NCBI GenBank assembly: GCA_964586775.1
Contig: CAZPJD010000184.1
Span: 1,668-65,667, forward strand
Origin: an uncultured bacterium
GTDB taxonomy: Bacteria; Lernaellota; Lernaellaia; JACKCT01
Direction of reading: 5' to 3'
Length of the DNA stretch: 64,000 nt
The notes beneath the pieces are model-generated. The model had not been told where the DNA came from, ran no database searches, and worked only from the letters and a program-made list of their open reading frames with translations. The translations under genes were made by a program, and so were the position numbers. Of this stretch, positions 25,955-59,372 are shown piece after piece. Every line of letters starts with the position of its first letter. Position 1 is the first letter of the stretch.

Positions 25955-26053
25955 GGAAGTGGATCGGCCGCTGGTGCGCCGCCCGGCCTTCAAAGCCGCG
26001 TGGGGGGCGTTGAACGCGTCCCCGGTGGGTTCGATTCCCACCCACTTCCGCCA
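25955..26053 (+). tRNA. selC: tRNA-Sec (anticodon UCA)
   Basis: GGAAGTGG...CCACTTCC 8-bp acceptor stem plus G plus encoded CCA. Anticodon loop CTTCAAA (TCA at 25990-25992). Long G/C-rich variable arm. T-arm GGTGGGTTCGATTCCCACC. Close overall resemblance to E. coli selC (GGAAGATC...CTTCAAA...GGTTCGACTCC...GATCTTCCGCCA). Confidence 0.9.
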
Positions 26054-47748: not shown

Positions 47749-48744
47749 ATGCAACTGCCCGCGGACATTCAGGCTCTCACCGAGGACGTGAAACAGGCGT
47801 CCGCCGCCGTCGACCGCCTCACCGCCGAGGTCTCCAAGGTCATCGTCGGCCAGCGCTACATGGTCGAGCGCGTGCTGATCGGCATCCTGTGCGGCGAGCA
47901 CATCCTGCTCGAAGGCGTGCCCGGCCTCGCCAAGACACTCGCGGTCAATACCTTCGCCCGCGCCATCAGCGGCTCGTTCGCGCGCGTGCAGTTCACGCCC
48001 GATCTGCTGCCCGCGGACCTCGTCGGCACGATGATCTACGATCAGAAATCCGGCGACTTCAAAGCGAAAAAGGGCCCGCTCTTCGCCAACCTCGTCCTCG
48101 CCGACGAAATCAACCGCGCCCCCGCCAAGGTGCAGTCCGCGCTGCTCGAGGCCATGCAGGAGCATCAGGTCACCCTGGGCGACACCACCTACAAACTGCC
48201 CGAGCCCTTCCTCGTCTTCGCGACGCAAAACCCCATCGAGCAGCAGGGCACCTATCCGCTGCCCGAGGCGCAGGTCGACCGCTTCATGCTCAAGCTCAAA
48301 GTCGGCTATCCGACGCGCAACGAGGAACGCGAGATCATCGCGCGCCACAGCGCCGGCCACGCCCCCGAGCCGACGCAGGTGACTTCGCCCGACGACATCC
48401 TGAAACTGCGCGAGCTGGTGCGTCGCATCTATGTGGACGAGCGCATCACGAGCTACATCCTCGACCTGATCTTCGCAACGCGCGACCCCAAGTCGATGGG
48501 CCTCGACAACCTGGAGCCGCTGATCCAGCTCGGCGCGAGCCCGCGCGCGAGCCTGTATCTGACCATCGCGGCGCGCGCCTTCGCGTTCCTCAATCATCGC
48601 GCCTTCGTCATCGCCGATGACGTGCACACCATCGCGCCCGACGTGCTGCGTCACCGCATCATCGGCACGTACGAGGCCGAGGCCGAGGGTCTGTCGAGTG
48701 ACGACATCGTGGCGCGTGTGCTCGAAAAGGTGAAAAAGCCGTGA
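47749..48744 (+). CDS. MoxR-family AAA+ ATPase
   Basis: Walker A GVPGLAKT, Walker B LADEINRA, characteristic TQNPIEQQGTYPLPEAQVDRF. Confidence 0.95.
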   Translation: MQLPADIQALTEDVKQASAAVDRLTAEVSKVIVGQRYMVERVLIGILCGEHILLEGVPGLAKTLAVNTFARAISGSFARVQFTPDLLPADLVGTMIYDQKSGDFKAKKGPLFANLVLADEINRAPAKVQSALLEAMQEHQVTLGDTTYKLPEPFLVFATQNPIEQQGTYPLPEAQVDRFMLKLKVGYPTRNEEREIIARHSAGHAPEPTQVTSPDDILKLRELVRRIYVDERITSYILDLIFATRDPKSMGLDNLEPLIQLGASPRASLYLTIAARAFAFLNHRAFVIADDVHTIAPDVLRHRIIGTYEAEAEGLSSDDIVARVLEKVKKP

Positions 48745-48783
48745 TGAGCAGGCGTAACCGGATGCAATTGTCCTCTCCGCATG

Positions 48784-49046
48784 CTGTCATCCTGATTTCC
48801 CAATCTGTCATCCTGAGCGTAGCGAAGGATCTGGTCGGAACACGCAACAAGACCCTTCGCTTCGCTCAGGGTGACACTTCCCAATTTGTCATTCCGAGCG
48901 AGGCCGTGGTTCTTTCTGTCATTCCGAGCGAGGCCGTGATTCTTTCTGTCATTCCGAGCGAGGCCGTCAGGCCGAGTCGAGGAATCCCTTTCCCGCTCGA
49001 CAACGTAAGGGATTCCTCCGCTCCGCTTCGCTCCGGTCGGAATGAC
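48784..49046. repeat. Block of nested palindromic (REP-like) elements, including 2.7 tandem copies of a 30-bp unit
   Basis: Hairpin 48807-48828 / 48854-48875 (GTCATCCTGAGCGTAGCGAAGG versus its near-complement, 20/22). Tandem TGTCATTCCGAGCGAGGCCGTGnTTCTTTC copies starting at 48887, 48917 and 48947. Perfect 12-bp inverted repeat GAGGAATCCCTT/AAGGGATTCCTC (48979-48990 / 49007-49018). Closing arm CGGTCGGAATGAC near 49035-49046. Confidence 0.85.
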
Positions 49047-49100
49047 GGCGCAAGAAGGCGCGACACTCGATTCGACAGTCTACCCTAAGGGTCAAGCCCA

Positions 49101-49985
49101 ATGCTGCCGCGCGAGCTGCTCAAAAAAATCCGGCGCATCGAGATCCTCACGCGCCGCCGCGTCGACGAGACCTTCGCGGGCCAATACCACTCGGTGTTCA
49201 AGGGCCGCGGCATGGAGTTCGCCGAGGTGCGCGAATACGCGATCGGCGACGACATCCGCGCCATCGACTGGAACGTCACCGCGCGCATGGGCCGGCCGTT
49301 TCTGAAGCTGTTCGAGGAAGAGCGCGAGCTGACCGTCATGATCGTCGCCGATATCTCCGCATCGATGGACACGGGCAGCGGCGCGGAGACGAAACGCGAA
49401 ACGGCGGCGACCCTCGCGGCGATTCTCGCTATGTCCGCGGTACGCAATCAGGACAAGGTGGGCGCGCTGCTCTTCGGCGGCGACGCGCATTCCTACGTGC
49501 CGCCGGGCAAGGGCCAGCGCCACGCGATCCGCATCGTGCGCGACATCTTGTACGAACAGCCGAAAAAAACGGGGACCGATCTCGAGGCGGCGATGGCGCA
49601 GCTCGGCCGCCTGCAAAAAAAACGCGCGGTGGTTTTCGTCATCTCCGATCTGCTGGGAATCAGCGAGCCGGGCCGCGCGTTCCAGATCGCCGCTCGCCGC
49701 CACGATCTGGTGGTGCTGCACGTCGAGGACCCGCGCGAACGCACCCTCGCGGGTTCGGGCCTGATTCCGCTCACCGATCCCGAAACGGGAGCGATGACGT
49801 GGATCGATCTGCGCGACGCGCCCACGCGCGCGCGCTGGACCGAAACCGCCGCCGCCCGCGAAACCGCCCGCAGAAAGTCCCTCTTGCGCATCGGCGTGGA
49901 TCGGGTTAAAATCGACGCTGGCTCCGATGTTTCAAAACCTTTGCTGCGCTTTTTCCGGGAAAGGGCGCTGAGGTTGGGAGCGTGA
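49101..49985 (+). CDS. DUF58 (vWA-like) protein, MoxR partner
   Basis: GQYHSVFKGRGMEFAEVREYAIGDDIRAIDWNVTAR motif. Downstream of moxR. Confidence 0.9.
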   Translation: MLPRELLKKIRRIEILTRRRVDETFAGQYHSVFKGRGMEFAEVREYAIGDDIRAIDWNVTARMGRPFLKLFEEERELTVMIVADISASMDTGSGAETKRETAATLAAILAMSAVRNQDKVGALLFGGDAHSYVPPGKGQRHAIRIVRDILYEQPKKTGTDLEAAMAQLGRLQKKRAVVFVISDLLGISEPGRAFQIAARRHDLVVLHVEDPRERTLAGSGLIPLTDPETGAMTWIDLRDAPTRARWTETAAARETARRKSLLRIGVDRVKIDAGSDVSKPLLRFFRERALRLGA

Positions 49986-50312
49986 GGGGAAAGAAAGAAC
50001 TGCGGATGGAGTGGACGAGTTCTGAGATCTCGCGACAGGCAAATTTCAAGTGGTGCCGTCGAACAACCCTATCAGGCAGCCCACTTGACCGTCTGATTGG
50101 ATTGGGTAGGCGCTACTGTGGCGAGATCAATGAGGCGTAGCGCTGGCACAGCCTGCGCGAGTGGGGCTATTACCGGGTCATGAATTAGGTGGGAGAATTT
50201 TGAGGTTATTTTGAGGACGCAATTTTTACCCCCAGCTAAAGCGCTAGGCGAGTTGCGTCTATCGTGGCGTGGAGCAGATGGGTATTTTTGACATCGATAG
50301 GCCGGAGGAAGC

Positions 50313-51338
50313 ATGTCGCGGAAGATAAAGACGGCTAGGGATTGGGATAACGCTTCGATTGACGATTTCGTCAATGACACTGGAATTGTCTGGAAAAAAC
50401 AGGATGCGAGCCGGTCAATGATCGACATTTGGCTTCGCGTTGTTCAACACGCAGCCGGATTTGGCGAACAAGTTCGTCGTCAAAGGTTAGACGAAGCGAC
50501 GAAGCAGTTAGCAAGACTTGCAATATGGATGTTAACATTTGCATCAAAAGGACTGGAGAAAAATCGAAGCGGGGTAGATGGTTTAATAAAATTGACGAAA
50601 CCAGTTTCAAGGTTACTGTGGATGAAATTCCCAAATTGCTGCCCTGCTTGTTTTACGCGAATGCATAGATCAAACCTTGTCGACGGTTTGAATGCAAAAA
50701 AACCTCGTTCTTGTCGATGTATATTAACATTAGAAGAAACGGAGAAACGAAACGAAGTATGGACGTCTAAACAAAAAGCTGAAACAAAAAAAATACGCAG
50801 ACAGTGGGCTGAGGCACATTTCATAAATTGTGATTACGGAAAAATAAGCATGATTGAGCTTGAATCGCGATTCGGGAACATTTTTCAGAGAAACATATTT
50901 TCTCAAAGTTTGGAATCTATGGCATTTCACCTGCTTGAAGAAGTGGGAGAAATGGCGGAATCGATAGTATCGCTCTATACTTACCAAGCTCAGAGGCCCA
51001 GTCAAACTAGCTGGCTCGAAAGAGTCTCGGAGTTGGAAGAGGAATTGGCCGATTGTTTTTCGTGGCTATTTGCAGTATCGCGAAAATTCCAAAATGTTTT
51101 TGAAGTGTTTGACAACTATTTGGAAAATAAAACAACTGTTTCCAAAAATATGTTTATTGCAAATCATATCAGAGACCGACACAGGCATAACGCTAGTAAG
51201 CAGTTGTGTTGTTTCGACTGTCAAGCTGCTGAATGTACATGTAAGATTAACATTATTCAGGATGATCTAGCGGCAAATCGCATTATGGCTGCGCCTAGAC
51301 CGGCAGAAAAGGCAAAAAAAATCGCAAGATCCACTTAA
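50313..51338 (+). CDS. MazG-like all-alpha NTP-pyrophosphohydrolase domain protein with two Cys-rich (zinc-ribbon-like) clusters, in an AT-rich islet
   Basis: SD GGAGGA before ATG 50313. HLLEEVGEMAES ... ELEEELADCFSWLFAVS (EExxE / ExxD pair). Degenerate N-terminal copy (VVQHAAGFGEQV ... QLARLAIWMLTFAS). CCPAC-x20-CRC and CCFDC-x4-CTC. Confidence 0.6.
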   Translation: MSRKIKTARDWDNASIDDFVNDTGIVWKKQDASRSMIDIWLRVVQHAAGFGEQVRRQRLDEATKQLARLAIWMLTFASKGLEKNRSGVDGLIKLTKPVSRLLWMKFPNCCPACFTRMHRSNLVDGLNAKKPRSCRCILTLEETEKRNEVWTSKQKAETKKIRRQWAEAHFINCDYGKISMIELESRFGNIFQRNIFSQSLESMAFHLLEEVGEMAESIVSLYTYQAQRPSQTSWLERVSELEEELADCFSWLFAVSRKFQNVFEVFDNYLENKTTVSKNMFIANHIRDRHRHNASKQLCCFDCQAAECTCKINIIQDDLAANRIMAAPRPAEKAKKIARST

Positions 51339-51458
51339 GGGCAATTCGAAAATATCGGTACGCCAAGTAACAATGATATGTACTTGAATGGGGCGATGAA
51401 GTTTAATCGCTTAGGCGGCATTTGATGTGTAAACGCGGATTCGAAATAACATTGTTTC

Positions 51459-51531
51459 GCGGGTGTAGCTCAGTCGGTAGAGCACGAGCTTCCCAAGCTC
51501 GGGGTCGCGGGTTCGAGGCCCGTCGCCCGCT
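51459..51531 (+). tRNA. tRNA-Gly (anticodon CCC)
   Basis: GCGGGTG/CGCCCGC acceptor stem, D-arm TAGCTCAGTCGGTAGAGCA, anticodon loop TTCCCAA (CCC at 51492-51494), T-loop GGTTCGAGG. CCA not encoded. Confidence 0.9.
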
Positions 51532-51604: not shown

Positions 51605-51631
51605 CCCCTCTCCCATCTGATGGGAGAGGGG
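51605..51631. repeat. Perfect 11-bp hairpin (CCCCTCTCCCA-TCTGA-TGGGAGAGGGG) nested in an outer CCCTCACC/GGTGAGGG inverted repeat (51577-51584 / 51675-51682)
   Basis: Direct reading of the sequence downstream of tRNA-Gly. Confidence 0.8.
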
Positions 51632-57283: not shown

Positions 57284-57324
57284 GGCCAAACGGCTCCGTG
57301 ACCGGAAGGGATAAAGGTGCCGCG

Positions 57325-58758
57325 ATGCTGCTTCGACTTCGGATCAAAGGGTTCAAGAATCTCGCTGACGCGGAGATCCGTTTCGGACCGCTCACTTGCT
57401 TCGTCGGCCCGAACGGTGCAGGGAAATCCAACATATTTGACGCGATCCGGCTACTCAAGCACCTCGCGGACTACGAGATCATGGCAGCGGTCGAATCGAT
57501 TCGGAACGCGTCGCGGCCGTCGTTTCGACTGCGCGACCTACTCTGGAATCCCGGAGTCAACTCCAAGATCTTGTTTGAGGCGGACATGATCGCTCCTCTA
57601 TCCGTCGAAGACGACTTTGGAGTTGAGTGTAAGCCGAAGGCGAATTTCCTACGCTATGTTCTGGAATTGAGGTACGATCAGAACCCGGAGAAACTCACCG
57701 TTGAGCGGGAACAATTGTCGCCGCTCCAAATCAGCGAAGCCGCGAAACTCCTGGGTTTCGAACACTCGGGGGCGTTTAGAAAAAGCGCTCTCACGACTCC
57801 CCGTCGGCGCGGACCATTTATTTCGACGGATGAAACGACGAAGGACCGGCCGGGGATTCAGCTTCACCAAGATGGCGGCAGTCGCGGGCGTGCCATCCCG
57901 GTGGGTCGCTCGCCTCGAACGGTCGTTGGCGGGACAAATGCGGCGGAATTTCCCACTGTTCTCGCGGCGCGTCGGGAAATGGCGTCGTGGCGGATTTTCC
58001 AACTGGAGCCATCGGTCATGCGTTCGCCGGATCCGATCGGCGGCGAAGATCGCATCGACGAACGAGGCGCGCATCTTGCCGCCGCCATCGAACGTCTACG
58101 GGCCGCTGAGACAGGCGATGGGCGCATCCTTCAAACGATATCCAATCGGCTGGGTCAACTGCTACCGGAGGTTCGATCGATACGGATCGAGCGGGACGAG
58201 CGAGTGCAAAGGTTGTCGCTAATGATGAAAATCAAGGGATGCGAACACGAACTTGGCCCCATGTCACTATCCGATGGTACGTTACGTTTCTTGGTGCTCG
58301 CGACCTTGGCGGAAGACCCAGAGGCGTCCGGAGTGGTGTGCATGGAGGAGCCCGAGAACGGAGTTCACCCGAGCCGAGTGCCCGTCATGTGCGAACTGCT
58401 GAGGGATTTGTGCGTCGATCCGAAAGAGGAGGTCAACGAGGACAACCCCTTGCGGCAGGTTATCGTTAATACTCATTCCCCTGATGTCGTGAGTGAGTTC
58501 GACTACTCCGAGATCCTGTTCGTGCGATCAGTGGACAGTTTTCAGGGAATCATCGCAAAGGTGTTTCCGGTCGACGATGGCAAAGAACGATCATCTTGGC
58601 GACTGAAATATCGACGTGAACTGCGCGGCGTGCCCTTGCGCGAAGTGATTGACTATATCGGAGGCACGCAGAGACGCCGCGCTCGTCTGGCCGACGAAAA
58701 GACGGGTGACCTAAAACATCGAAAAATGAAAACCACGCTGGATCTACCGCTGGGATGA
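57325..58758 (+). CDS. ABC/SMC-type (AAA_15/AAA_21-like) ATPase
   Basis: ATG 57325 after AAAGG. N-terminus MLLRLRIKGFKNL, Walker A GPNGAGKSN, signature-like LSDGTLRFL, Walker B VVCMEEPENGVHP, H-loop VNTHSP. Long insert between Walker A and the signature. Confidence 0.8.
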   Translation: MLLRLRIKGFKNLADAEIRFGPLTCFVGPNGAGKSNIFDAIRLLKHLADYEIMAAVESIRNASRPSFRLRDLLWNPGVNSKILFEADMIAPLSVEDDFGVECKPKANFLRYVLELRYDQNPEKLTVEREQLSPLQISEAAKLLGFEHSGAFRKSALTTPRRRGPFISTDETTKDRPGIQLHQDGGSRGRAIPVGRSPRTVVGGTNAAEFPTVLAARREMASWRIFQLEPSVMRSPDPIGGEDRIDERGAHLAAAIERLRAAETGDGRILQTISNRLGQLLPEVRSIRIERDERVQRLSLMMKIKGCEHELGPMSLSDGTLRFLVLATLAEDPEASGVVCMEEPENGVHPSRVPVMCELLRDLCVDPKEEVNEDNPLRQVIVNTHSPDVVSEFDYSEILFVRSVDSFQGIIAKVFPVDDGKERSSWRLKYRRELRGVPLREVIDYIGGTQRRRARLADEKTGDLKHRKMKTTLDLPLG

Positions 58759-59372
58759 GTGACTTTCGACCACTTCGTTATGTGTTGATCGCTGATGGAT
58801 CATCGGATCGTCTGCTCGCGCCGATCATCGATTGGACATTGCGCATGGCAGATTCGAAAGCTCGACTCGAGATTGAGCCAGGGTATGTTTTTGAGCGAAA
58901 ACATCGCTCAATTTCTGAAGTAATTTCTGAGGTTAGAGAACATTATTTCCCAGATGTCATTTTTGTGCATCGCGATGCTGAAAACTTGCGGTGGGACGAA
59001 CGCGCGCGGGAAATCCCCGTTGCTGACGATTTGATCCCTGTTATTCCGGTGCGCATGATCGAAACGTGGCTATTGTGCGACGAAAAAGCCATTCGAGGCG
59101 CTGCGGACAATCCGAACGGAACGGCCCCGCTCGATCTTCCCAGATTGAATGATTTGGAGTCCGTCCAAAATTCAAAGCAGGTACTTGAGGATAAGCTTCG
59201 CTTGGCGACGGAGTTGAACGCACGCAGACGCGCGAAATTCAAGGTGAACCGCGCCATACACCGGTTGGTCGAACTGATCGAAGATTTCAGTCCTTTGTCC
59301 GCCTTGCCCGCCTTTTCCCGATTTCAGGTTGACGTCCGACGGTTTCTGGAGAATCTGAAGAGCTTGGAGTAA
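58755..59372 (+). CDS. Small acidic-motif protein, DUF4276/Toprim-like (family assignment tentative)
   Basis: ATGA overlap with the ATPase stop. Ordered motifs YVLIADGSSD, VIFVHRDAEN, PVRMIETWLLCDE. Markedly AT-richer codon usage than the surrounding genome. Confidence 0.55.
   Translation: MSDFRPLRYVLIADGSSDRLLAPIIDWTLRMADSKARLEIEPGYVFERKHRSISEVISEVREHYFPDVIFVHRDAENLRWDERAREIPVADDLIPVIPVRMIETWLLCDEKAIRGAADNPNGTAPLDLPRLNDLESVQNSKQVLEDKLRLATELNARRRAKFKVNRAIHRLVELIEDFSPLSALPAFSRFQVDVRRFLENLKSLE

Follow-up and report, generated by a model that had tools for sequence, protein, structure and literature searches.

A small AT-rich islet stands out in the 64,000-nucleotide (nt) stretch of DNA from an uncultured bacterium that was analysed here (the window, meaning that whole stretch), between a gene for a DUF58 protein and a tRNA-Gly gene. 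The islet is recently acquired DNA with one intact gene. As judged from profile and motif matches, the 341-amino-acid (aa) product of this gene is a member of the MazG / all-alpha NTP pyrophosphohydrolase (NTP-PPase) superfamily, with a predicted fold that is supportive but marginal. Its architecture, an apparently dead and a live domain with a Cys4 knuckle each, is fixed across a family of its own and undescribed within the known MazG superfamily. We lean somewhat towards reading the gene as an acquired, solo, tandem MazG-like pyrophosphohydrolase of the dCTP/dUTP type that has become detached from a deaminase cassette. The family is recurrently linked to enzymes that make or use dUMP; what we infer for the window protein is its substrate, its zinc binding, its single composite active site and its physiological role.

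The C-terminal half of the protein matches Pfam MazG (PF03819) at aa 198-258, with 28.4 bits against a gathering score of 22, and carries the EExxE...ExxD motif pair, which bears out the proposal of the initial annotation that this half has the acidic helix pair of the all-alpha NTP pyrophosphohydrolases. The N-terminal domain searched alone had no Pfam match. Profile and structure searches for each half had been suggested as a check, and the profiles of both halves do match solved MazG proteins: positions 4-79 of the family profile match the Sulfolobus protein 1vmg_A at E 1.7e-7, and the C-terminal half of the profile matches 5ie9, the integron protein iMazG (2q73), YpjD (2gta) and, weakly, DCTPP1 (E 0.3-0.9). 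The two halves are also alike. The hhalign comparison of sub-alignments of the N-half and the C-half spans 113 columns and brings the CPxC...CxC motifs into register, at a probability of 99.3% and E 2e-20. E209, E210, E213, E244 and D247 of the C-domain align with Q45, H46, G49, Q65 and R68 of the N-domain. Two further claims made from the letters thus stand, namely that the N-half repeats the helix pattern with its metal ligands lost, and that the Cys cluster after each half makes the protein a MazG-like plus zinc-knuckle unit in two copies, one of them degenerate.

Conservation within the family points the same way. In an alignment of 110 sequences, the near-invariant residues are R55, W72, P107, C110, C113, C134 and C136 in the N-half, and H206, E209, E210, G212, E213, E244, A246, D247, C300, C303 and C308 in the C-half. 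The window protein carries every one of them and is therefore not a decaying copy. Among 178 aligned members, E209, E210 and E213 are glutamate in 171, 169 and 164, E244 is found in 169 and D247 in 173, which puts the conservation of the metal motifs at 92% or above. The cysteines of the first cluster (C110, C113, C134 and C136) are kept in 176, 170, 178 and 178 of these members, and those of the second (C300, C303, C308 and C310) in 167, 164, 168 and 129. The N-domain retains conserved residues of its own (H46, E52, R55 and W72), and it is predicted to be catalytically dead throughout the family. The protein is thus a single-chain pseudo-dimer of MazG-like domains, formed by internal duplication of a unit made of a MazG-like helical bundle and a Cys4 knuckle, and each Cys4 cluster probably binds zinc.

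AlphaFold2, run with the family alignment, gave a compact all-helical model with a predicted local distance difference test score (pLDDT) of 95.1 and a predicted template-modelling (TM) score (pTM) of 0.92; a model of the C-domain only had a pLDDT of 91.5. In a Foldseek comparison of the C-domain with the PDB, the top 15 matches are all MazG-like (probability 0.92-1.0, TM-score to the target 0.52-0.75, with marginal E-values of 0.03-0.5). The first of them is the mouse dCTPase/DCTPP1 with dCMP or 5-Me-dCMP (6sqw; probability 1.0, a marginal E of 0.033), and next come 1vmg (TM-score to the target 0.75) and AF1178. HisE, E. coli MazG and S-2L MazZ follow at ranks 18, 20 and 23, amid unrelated helical proteins. 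Since the Foldseek E-values are marginal, the MazG-like fold is supported mainly by the profiles.

The islet differs from everything around it in composition. In 500-nt segments its G+C is as low as 0.39-0.42 (50501-51500), where the rest of the window has about 0.65, and the gene itself has a G+C of 0.411 with 0.38 at third codon positions (GC3), compared with a GC3 of 0.83 for the adjoining DUF58 gene. The G+C of the gene lies at z = -7.8 relative to all other 1026-nt segments of the 64 kb, the second-lowest of which, at about 58.35 kb, has 0.522. Both the sharp fall in G+C from the DUF58 stop to the tRNA-Gly gene and the gene body being the most AT-rich part of the window had been seen at the outset, and both are confirmed by these profiles, with one refinement: at a resolution of 100 nt, G+C changes abruptly at the tRNA on the right and falls by degrees on the left, beginning at about 49900, with 0.535 in the stretch 49986-50312. 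The surroundings are ordinary host genes, encoding MoxR, DUF58, tRNA-Gly, YacG, an enoyl-reductase-CBS protein and RsmG.

The comparison with relatives concerns the site itself. Searches with the DUF58 protein led to a counterpart of 96% identity in a metagenome-assembled genome (MAG) that carries the label Deltaproteobacteria (GCA_023382855.1), and also in another assembly. Two contigs, L158 and L159, share 91-94% DNA identity with the window across the MoxR and DUF58 genes, and this similarity ends at window position 49990, 5 nt past the DUF58 stop; the next 95 nt in both are 44% G+C and unrelated to any window sequence, and there both contigs end. Because the homology breaks at that point, the site directly after the DUF58 gene is strain-variable, and the islet is not common to a very close relative. 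The two generic signs of horizontal acquisition are thus both present, atypical composition on the one hand and, on the other, absence after the breakpoint in a relative (within contigs that end after 95 nt). Acquisition had been proposed from the letters alone, and the composition and the break in homology with a 91-94% identical relative support it. The window copy is a small, clean, single-gene acquisition at a strain-variable site. Beside this site, a 342-nt insertion at 48741-49082, between the MoxR and DUF58 genes, is likewise missing from the 91-94% identical L158; it holds a 30-nt tandem repeat in 2.7 copies (TGTCATTCCGAGCGAGGCCGTGATTCTTTC) at 48887-48967 and looks like a repetitive intergenic element.

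How the DNA arrived is a different matter. More distant DUF58 relatives (73-81% identity) show no synteny at the islet site; the best one on a genome contig (73% identity) has no tRNA there and was of no use for an empty-site test, and L160, at 81%, lacks synteny too. The islet encodes no integrase, and its flanks show no direct or inverted repeats, tRNA-derived or not, that would suggest the footprint of a mobile element. An integrase-mediated tRNA island was rejected, as the islet holds a single gene, is located on the 5' side of the tRNA and gave no meaningful direct repeat; on the same grounds the earlier appeal to tRNA genes as hotspots for acquired DNA is not supported for this islet, whose adjacency to the tRNA may be incidental. 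No relatives turned up in the collections searched (IMG/VR viral contigs, INPHARED phages and PLSDB plasmids), and an origin from a phage or a plasmid is therefore unsupported.

A first, word-indexed search found six relatives only, and an exhaustive HMMER search found 304 clusters (at 50% identity) with E <= 1e-3, 159 of them with E <= 1e-10, mostly of 290-400 aa; a metagenome scan gave 66 family loci. Pfam MazG matches 63 of 110 members, and the sources give the members no other names than "hypothetical protein" or "NTP pyrophosphatase (non-canonical NTP hydrolase)". NCBIfam has no match to the window protein, and PADLOC has no relevant one (a single spurious homing-endonuclease hit, E 0.016). 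In the Pfam, NCBIfam, PADLOC and literature searches we found no description of this architecture or its operons. It is, in short, a confidently modelled, uncharacterised family of about 300 clusters. Some members are elaborated further. The C-terminal fusion of P0022 (700 aa) has sub-threshold matches to DHH (E 0.011) and DHHA1 (E 0.063) that stand in the right order. An uncharacterised C-terminal extension of some 160 aa is common to P0039 and P0045, and P0060 has a further one of its own. Two tandem paralogous copies, placed in different sub-branches of the tree, occur in each of the loci L020 (121-2720) and L025 (5508-7810), and in L036 a stand-alone 147-aa protein (1852-2292) is encoded directly upstream of the family gene and has a sub-threshold match to Pfam MazG (E 4.7e-4, 20.8 bits against a cut-off of 22).

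The gene neighbourhoods of these relatives are what points to a function. Open reading frames (ORFs) were called in all fetched loci and clustered, and the recurrent neighbours were annotated. In the tree, P0002, P0003 and P0004 (48-51% identity) group with the window protein, as do P0008 and P0010 (36-38%). In all five of these clade members, the ones whose neighbourhood was examined, a gene for a small dCMP_cyt_deam_1 deaminase lies immediately upstream; in L001 the deaminase and the family gene overlap by 11 nt. Long flanks are available for two loci of this clade only, and both are conflict islands. In L001 the order is DrmE_C, NERD/UvrD, DEAD helicase, MZB/DUF1998 and C5 methylase (a DISARM-like set), followed by the deaminase and the family gene; in L004 it is helix-turn-helix (HTH), C5 methylase, UvrD-PDDEXK (GajB-like in PADLOC) and Vsr, again followed by the deaminase and the family gene. 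Decayed copies that resemble the window's clade, with 40-44% identity to the window protein, were found in L006 (91-813; 5'-truncated, N-domain lost) and in L010 (9944-10759, the same as L037; N-domain lost and a frameshift in the catalytic domain), which fits a gene that is dispensable and frequently lost.

Elsewhere in the family a recurrent partner is ThyX. Its gene lies directly upstream of the family gene in 16 of the 37 non-redundant loci with enough upstream sequence, preceded by a NUDIX gene, all on the same strand and with tight or overlapping spacing. This ThyX is bona fide (TIGR02170, 150.6 bits against a cut-off of 87.9), and in L044 a dCMP deaminase gene stands in front of the NUDIX-ThyX-family gene series. 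Several of these loci have upstream a gene that we take to be dnaA, and downstream genes that we take to be obg and nadD, from reading their sequences and with no family search. The NUDIX proteins of these operons (cluster c2; L009 288-1085) have a C-terminal extension of about 120 aa without a Pfam match, and the models closest to their NUDIX part, with scores under the cut-offs, are those of MutT and of pyrimidine (d)NTP diphosphatases.

Taken together, these observations suggest the following mechanism. Only the C-terminal domain keeps the Mg2+ ligands of the EExxE...ExxD motifs, and therefore the protein should have one active site, which E52, R55 and W72 of the N-domain probably help to complete. 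The predicted enzyme would most likely cut a pyrimidine deoxynucleoside triphosphate (dNTP) between the alpha and beta phosphates and release the monophosphate and pyrophosphate, the candidate substrates being dCTP, 5-modified dCTP and/or dUTP. In the closest relatives its gene comes second in a cassette of two, behind that of a dCMP-type deaminase, and the pair would take dCTP to dCMP and on to dUMP; in the distant relatives, encoded after NUDIX and ThyX, the route would continue from dUMP to dTMP. The window copy may have lost its deaminase partner or never have had one, and would act alone: it would either trim or sanitise the dCTP/dUTP pool or serve, detached, as the effector half of a defence cassette that depletes nucleotides. 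By context, the window's clade inclines to conflict and the ThyX clade to housekeeping. The initial annotation had asked for homologues and their neighbourhoods to be recorded, and the record (deaminases, DISARM/restriction islands, NUDIX-ThyX operons, no phage or plasmid relatives in the collections searched) divides its view. The dCMP-deaminase partners, the DISARM and restriction islands and the TIR fusions described below lend circumstantial support to the idea that the protein depletes or cleanses nucleotides in a setting of conflict; a purely conflict-related view is not supported, given the many members in core-looking NUDIX-ThyX operons beside the presumed dnaA, obg and nadD.

Several points weigh against a solo dCTP/dUTP-type enzyme detached from a cassette. 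Queried by tblastn with the deaminase, ThyX and NUDIX proteins, the islet and the whole 64 kb showed neither such a partner nor a remnant of one, and no other protein of L001 or L004 had a match there when each was used as a query; therefore the logic of the cassette may not transfer to the window copy. Gene neighbourhood cannot fix substrate specificity, and for the whole family the substrate reading rests on sequence, predicted structure and gene context. Zinc binding is argued from Cys conservation only. Searched with Foldseek against the PDB and BFVD, the full-length model had no significant neighbour, only generic helical bundles, and the ranking among the MazG-like folds rests on E-values that are marginal (0.03 or worse). 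The islet is without a recognised sigma-70 promoter or intrinsic terminator. Finally, many members have contexts without a link to nucleotide metabolism: one clade, in Desulfobaccales MAGs, has an apparently core PheS/lipoprotein/MurJ context, where we take the genes to be those of PheS, MurJ and Nth from reading the sequences, and another clade adjoins a gene for an S-adenosylmethionine methyltransferase (confirmed by Pfam).

The strongest of the alternatives, unlikely as we consider it, is anti-phage immunity. A cassette of deaminase and tandem MazG would drain dCTP to dCMP and on to dUMP upon infection, the zinc knuckles or the dead N-domain would sense a phage cue, and the effector encoded in the window would be stand-alone or orphaned. 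A defensive role of MazG domains has been predicted and never validated (PMC13092281), which we count for this alternative. Both close relatives with long flanks directly follow their DISARM-like or HTH / C5-methylase / UvrD-PDDEXK / Vsr sets, and two ORFs upstream of the family gene in L047 is a gene for a kinase-deaminase fusion that matches models of anti-phage dCTP deaminases (PADLOC dCTPase, E 5e-90; the NCBIfam model "anti-phage dCTP deaminase" with 230 bits, below its 400-bit cut-off), an arrangement that also speaks for our preferred reading. The gene is also patchy and mobile, to judge from the decayed copies of L006 and L010 and its strain-specific presence in the window, and a candidate defence pair, HEC-01, lies 6 kb from the islet. 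However, the two long-flank contexts are the only ones for the window's clade, the window copy is without a partner gene and its protein without a relevant PADLOC match, and the small partner deaminases score equally against the housekeeping ComEB and the anti-phage models, below both cut-offs. A large share of the family, moreover, sits in the core NUDIX-ThyX operons beside the presumed dnaA, obg and nadD.

A separate clade adds to the case for defence in its own way. Its members (P0020, P0031, P0054, P0057, P0059 and L018) carry a C-terminal TIR_2 fusion, and the TIR domains of P0031 and P0020, the two that were tested, match ThsB-like models. One such locus is near a TIR-FGE-sulfatase gene and a STAND-WD40 gene, and another is near an IS66 element; P0057 has an additional weak, receiver-like domain at its N-terminus. 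E209 is replaced in three of the six TIR-fused proteins, as is E244 in three, and all eight cysteines are kept, a pattern that would fit an enzyme turning into a sensor. One could go a step further and propose that the module is an unrecognised building block of immunity with two forms, of which the window gene would be a free-standing member. In the first form the module and a small dCMP-type deaminase would make a two-gene anti-phage system that destroys the dCTP pool by way of dCMP and dUMP; in the second, the TIR-fused clade with its eroded glutamates and retained cysteines, it would be a nucleotide sensor that switches on the TIR NADase. We regard this broader proposal as doubtful. The cassette may be a new nucleotide-depletion defence beside DISARM and restriction systems, and the TIR fusions may show an enzyme turned sensor. 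Of all members of this interesting family, the window's solo gene tells us least.

It is rather improbable, in our view, that the gene is a plain housekeeping dUTPase/dCTPase, which would feed dUMP or dCMP to ThyX for thymidylate supply or the avoidance of dUTP and would have been transferred by chance as a metabolic extra. This would suit the 16 of 37 loci with ThyX directly upstream in tight or overlapping order, some of them with the presumed DnaA, Obg and NadD at their flanks, and the invariant catalytic residues of the ThyX-linked clade; DCTPP1 (PMC7162842) provides a precedent. The window protein, however, belongs to another clade, with about 30% identity to the ThyX-linked members, and no thyX lies beside its gene. 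A genome of 65% G+C with its own core metabolism also has no obvious need for an unameliorated copy of 41% G+C.

More improbable still is a sanitiser of modified cytosine, which would hydrolyse 5-methyl-dCTP or other 5-modified dCTP arising from the turnover of C5-methylated DNA; a deaminase would then convert 5-methyl-dCMP to dTMP as a second step, preventing the random incorporation of 5-methylcytosine. A C5 DNA methylase (PF00145) is encoded in both long-flank contexts, with Vsr in one, the top structural neighbour is the mouse dCTPase bound to 5-Me-dCMP, and DCTPP1 has a high affinity for 5'-modified dCTP (PMC7162842). These contexts are two observations only, though, and in L001 the C5 methylase is intrinsic to the DISARM-like set anyway; the window encodes no homologue of the L001 and L004 C5 methylases, and a Foldseek ranking is no evidence of specificity.

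Least supported, and highly improbable, is a hydrolase of alarmones or other signals that, in the manner reported for E. coli MazG and phage Atd1, would break down (p)ppGpp or an immune second messenger and so work in regulation or counter-defence: the MazG-like phage protein Atd1 does deplete (p)ppGpp and blunt TIR-STING toxicity (bioRxiv 10.1101/2022.06.09.495361) and TIR fusions do occur in the family, but no members were found in the IMG/VR, INPHARED and PLSDB collections searched, the recurrent partners are dCMP deaminase and ThyX and not RelA/SpoT or cyclases, and such a role is not general for MazG, as a cyanophage MazG, although a pyrophosphohydrolase, is reported to be incapable of hydrolysing magic spot nucleotides (PMC6850273).

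The coordinates of the gene, its domains and its signals are collected in Table 1. The remaining ORFs of the islet are short and overlap the gene, and the initial annotation was right on its single confident 341-aa ORF, on the GGAGGA in front of it and on the tandem 9-mer further upstream. The 9-mer has two copies in the 64 kb, both in this tandem, where 0.25 are expected; two or more were obtained in 4 of 100 shuffles. It is a possible operator, and no sigma-70-type promoter was detected near it. No Rfam family other than the tRNA, and no non-coding RNA, was recognised within the islet. Beyond the islet, a perfect 13-nt inverted repeat (CCCCTCTCCCATC / GATGGGAGAGGGG) with a 1-nt loop and no T-run lies at 51605-51631, 74 nt 3' of the tRNA-Gly gene, and could be a processing or termination hairpin.

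Table 1. Positions of the islet, its gene and related features (window coordinates, or coordinates within the locus named)
Feature	Position	Strand	Basis
AT-rich islet between DUF58 stop and tRNA-Gly	49991..51458	.	G+C profile, end of similarity to L158/L159
Gene for tandem MazG-like / double Cys4-knuckle protein, 341 aa	50313..51338	+	ORF, Pfam MazG, homologues, AlphaFold2
N-terminal degenerate MazG-like helical domain, ~aa 1-100	50313..50612	+	profile match to 1vmg_A; hhalign
First Cys4 cluster, C110-x2-C113 ... C134-x-C136 (CCPAC-x20-CRC)	50640..50720	+	family conservation; hhalign
C-terminal putative catalytic MazG-like domain, ~aa 180-290	50850..51182	+	Pfam PF03819; Foldseek
Predicted metal-binding motif, E209-E210-x-x-E213	50937..50951	+	family conservation
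Second predicted metal-binding motif, E244-x-x-D247	51042..51053	+	family conservation
Second Cys4 cluster, C300-x2-C303-x4-C308-x-C310 (CCFDC-x4-CTC)	51210..51242	+	family conservation
Shine-Dalgarno-like GGAGGA, 3 nt before ATG	50304..50309	+	read from sequence
Tandem 9-mer ATTTTGAGG-tt-ATTTTGAGG, 97 nt upstream of start codon	50197..50216	+	sequence
DUF58/VWA gene, host, left boundary of islet	49101..49985	+	Pfam DUF58 E 4.5e-71; GC3 0.83
tRNA-Gly(CCC), host gene, right boundary of islet	51459..51531	+	ARAGORN; Rfam 64.7 bits
TIR_2-fused family genes	L018 369-1955; L157 10001-11587

Two further features of the window deserve a mention. About 6 kb downstream of the islet, at 57298-59369 (+) in a stretch of lower G+C (0.50-0.58), is a two-gene candidate defence system, made up of a gene for an AAA_15/AAA_21 ATPase of 486 aa that matches PADLOC HEC-01A (E 1.3e-87) and an overlapping gene for a 205-aa protein that matches HEC-01B (E 1.6e-17). 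At 25955-26053 (+) there is a tRNA-Sec gene with the anticodon TCA (ARAGORN; Rfam RF01852, 75 bits), and therefore the organism probably uses selenocysteine.

It remains to compare the protein with what is known. The known MazG-like enzymes are house-cleaning enzymes with a single domain, or the products of auxiliary phage genes. The helical bundle and the EExxE...ExxD motifs are common to the window protein and the superfamily (PF03819; SSO3215 1vmg, B. subtilis YpjD 2gta, integron iMazG 2q73). The known small proteins, however, have a single domain of about 100 aa, whereas the window protein has two fused domains, one of them apparently dead, and a Cys4 knuckle on each that the solved small MazG proteins lack. 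The tandem MazG of the E. coli type (3crc) likewise has two all-alpha NTP-PPase domains per chain and is a weak Foldseek match (E 0.9). E. coli MazG has catalytic motifs in both domains and is not known to have zinc knuckles. An assignment to this type was rejected, the ligands of the N-domain being replaced and the N-domain being uniformly degenerate in the family. For a pseudo-dimer made by internal duplication, this type and the "linked-dimer" NTP-PPases (DUF2166, PMC2954211), with two domains per chain, are a precedent. Dimeric dUTPase (dUTPase_2) was also considered and set aside, as the window protein had no Pfam or NCBIfam match to it at E up to 10 and none of 110 members had one.

Systems of nucleotide metabolism were compared as well. 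Anti-phage dCTP deaminases of the AvcD type (PADLOC dCTPase PDLC02373, NCBIfam NF041025) draw on the same pool of deoxycytidine nucleotides, but they are built on a deaminase, while the window encodes none and its MazG-like protein matches no PADLOC model; a recognisable system of this kind was rejected after tblastn with all partner deaminases came back empty for the islet and the window. Phages have pairs of a dNTP pyrophosphatase and an enzyme that modifies the monophosphate, such as T4 gp56 with Cd and gp42, and MazZ with PurZ in cyanophage S-2L. The logic of these pairs is the same, in that a MazG-superfamily enzyme removes a dNTP (dCTP in the case of the T4 gp56 dCTPase) while making the monophosphate for the next enzyme, and S-2L MazZ (7ody) is among the fold matches of the C-domain; those enzymes are phage genes, however, and the present family was not found in the viral, phage and plasmid collections searched.

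DCTPP1, or RS21-C6 (mouse 6sqw and 2oig; human 7mu5), is the best structural neighbour of the catalytic half, at the marginal E-value given above. It differs in having a single domain and no Cys clusters, and its sequence similarity to the family is marginal. Human DCTPP1 is an all-alpha, MazG-like dCTPase that supplies dCMP for dCMP deaminase and thymidylate synthesis (PMC7162842). This route of its product matches the deaminase and ThyX gene partners of the family, which may thus be a bacterial counterpart of the route from DCTPP1 through dCMP deaminase to thymidylate.

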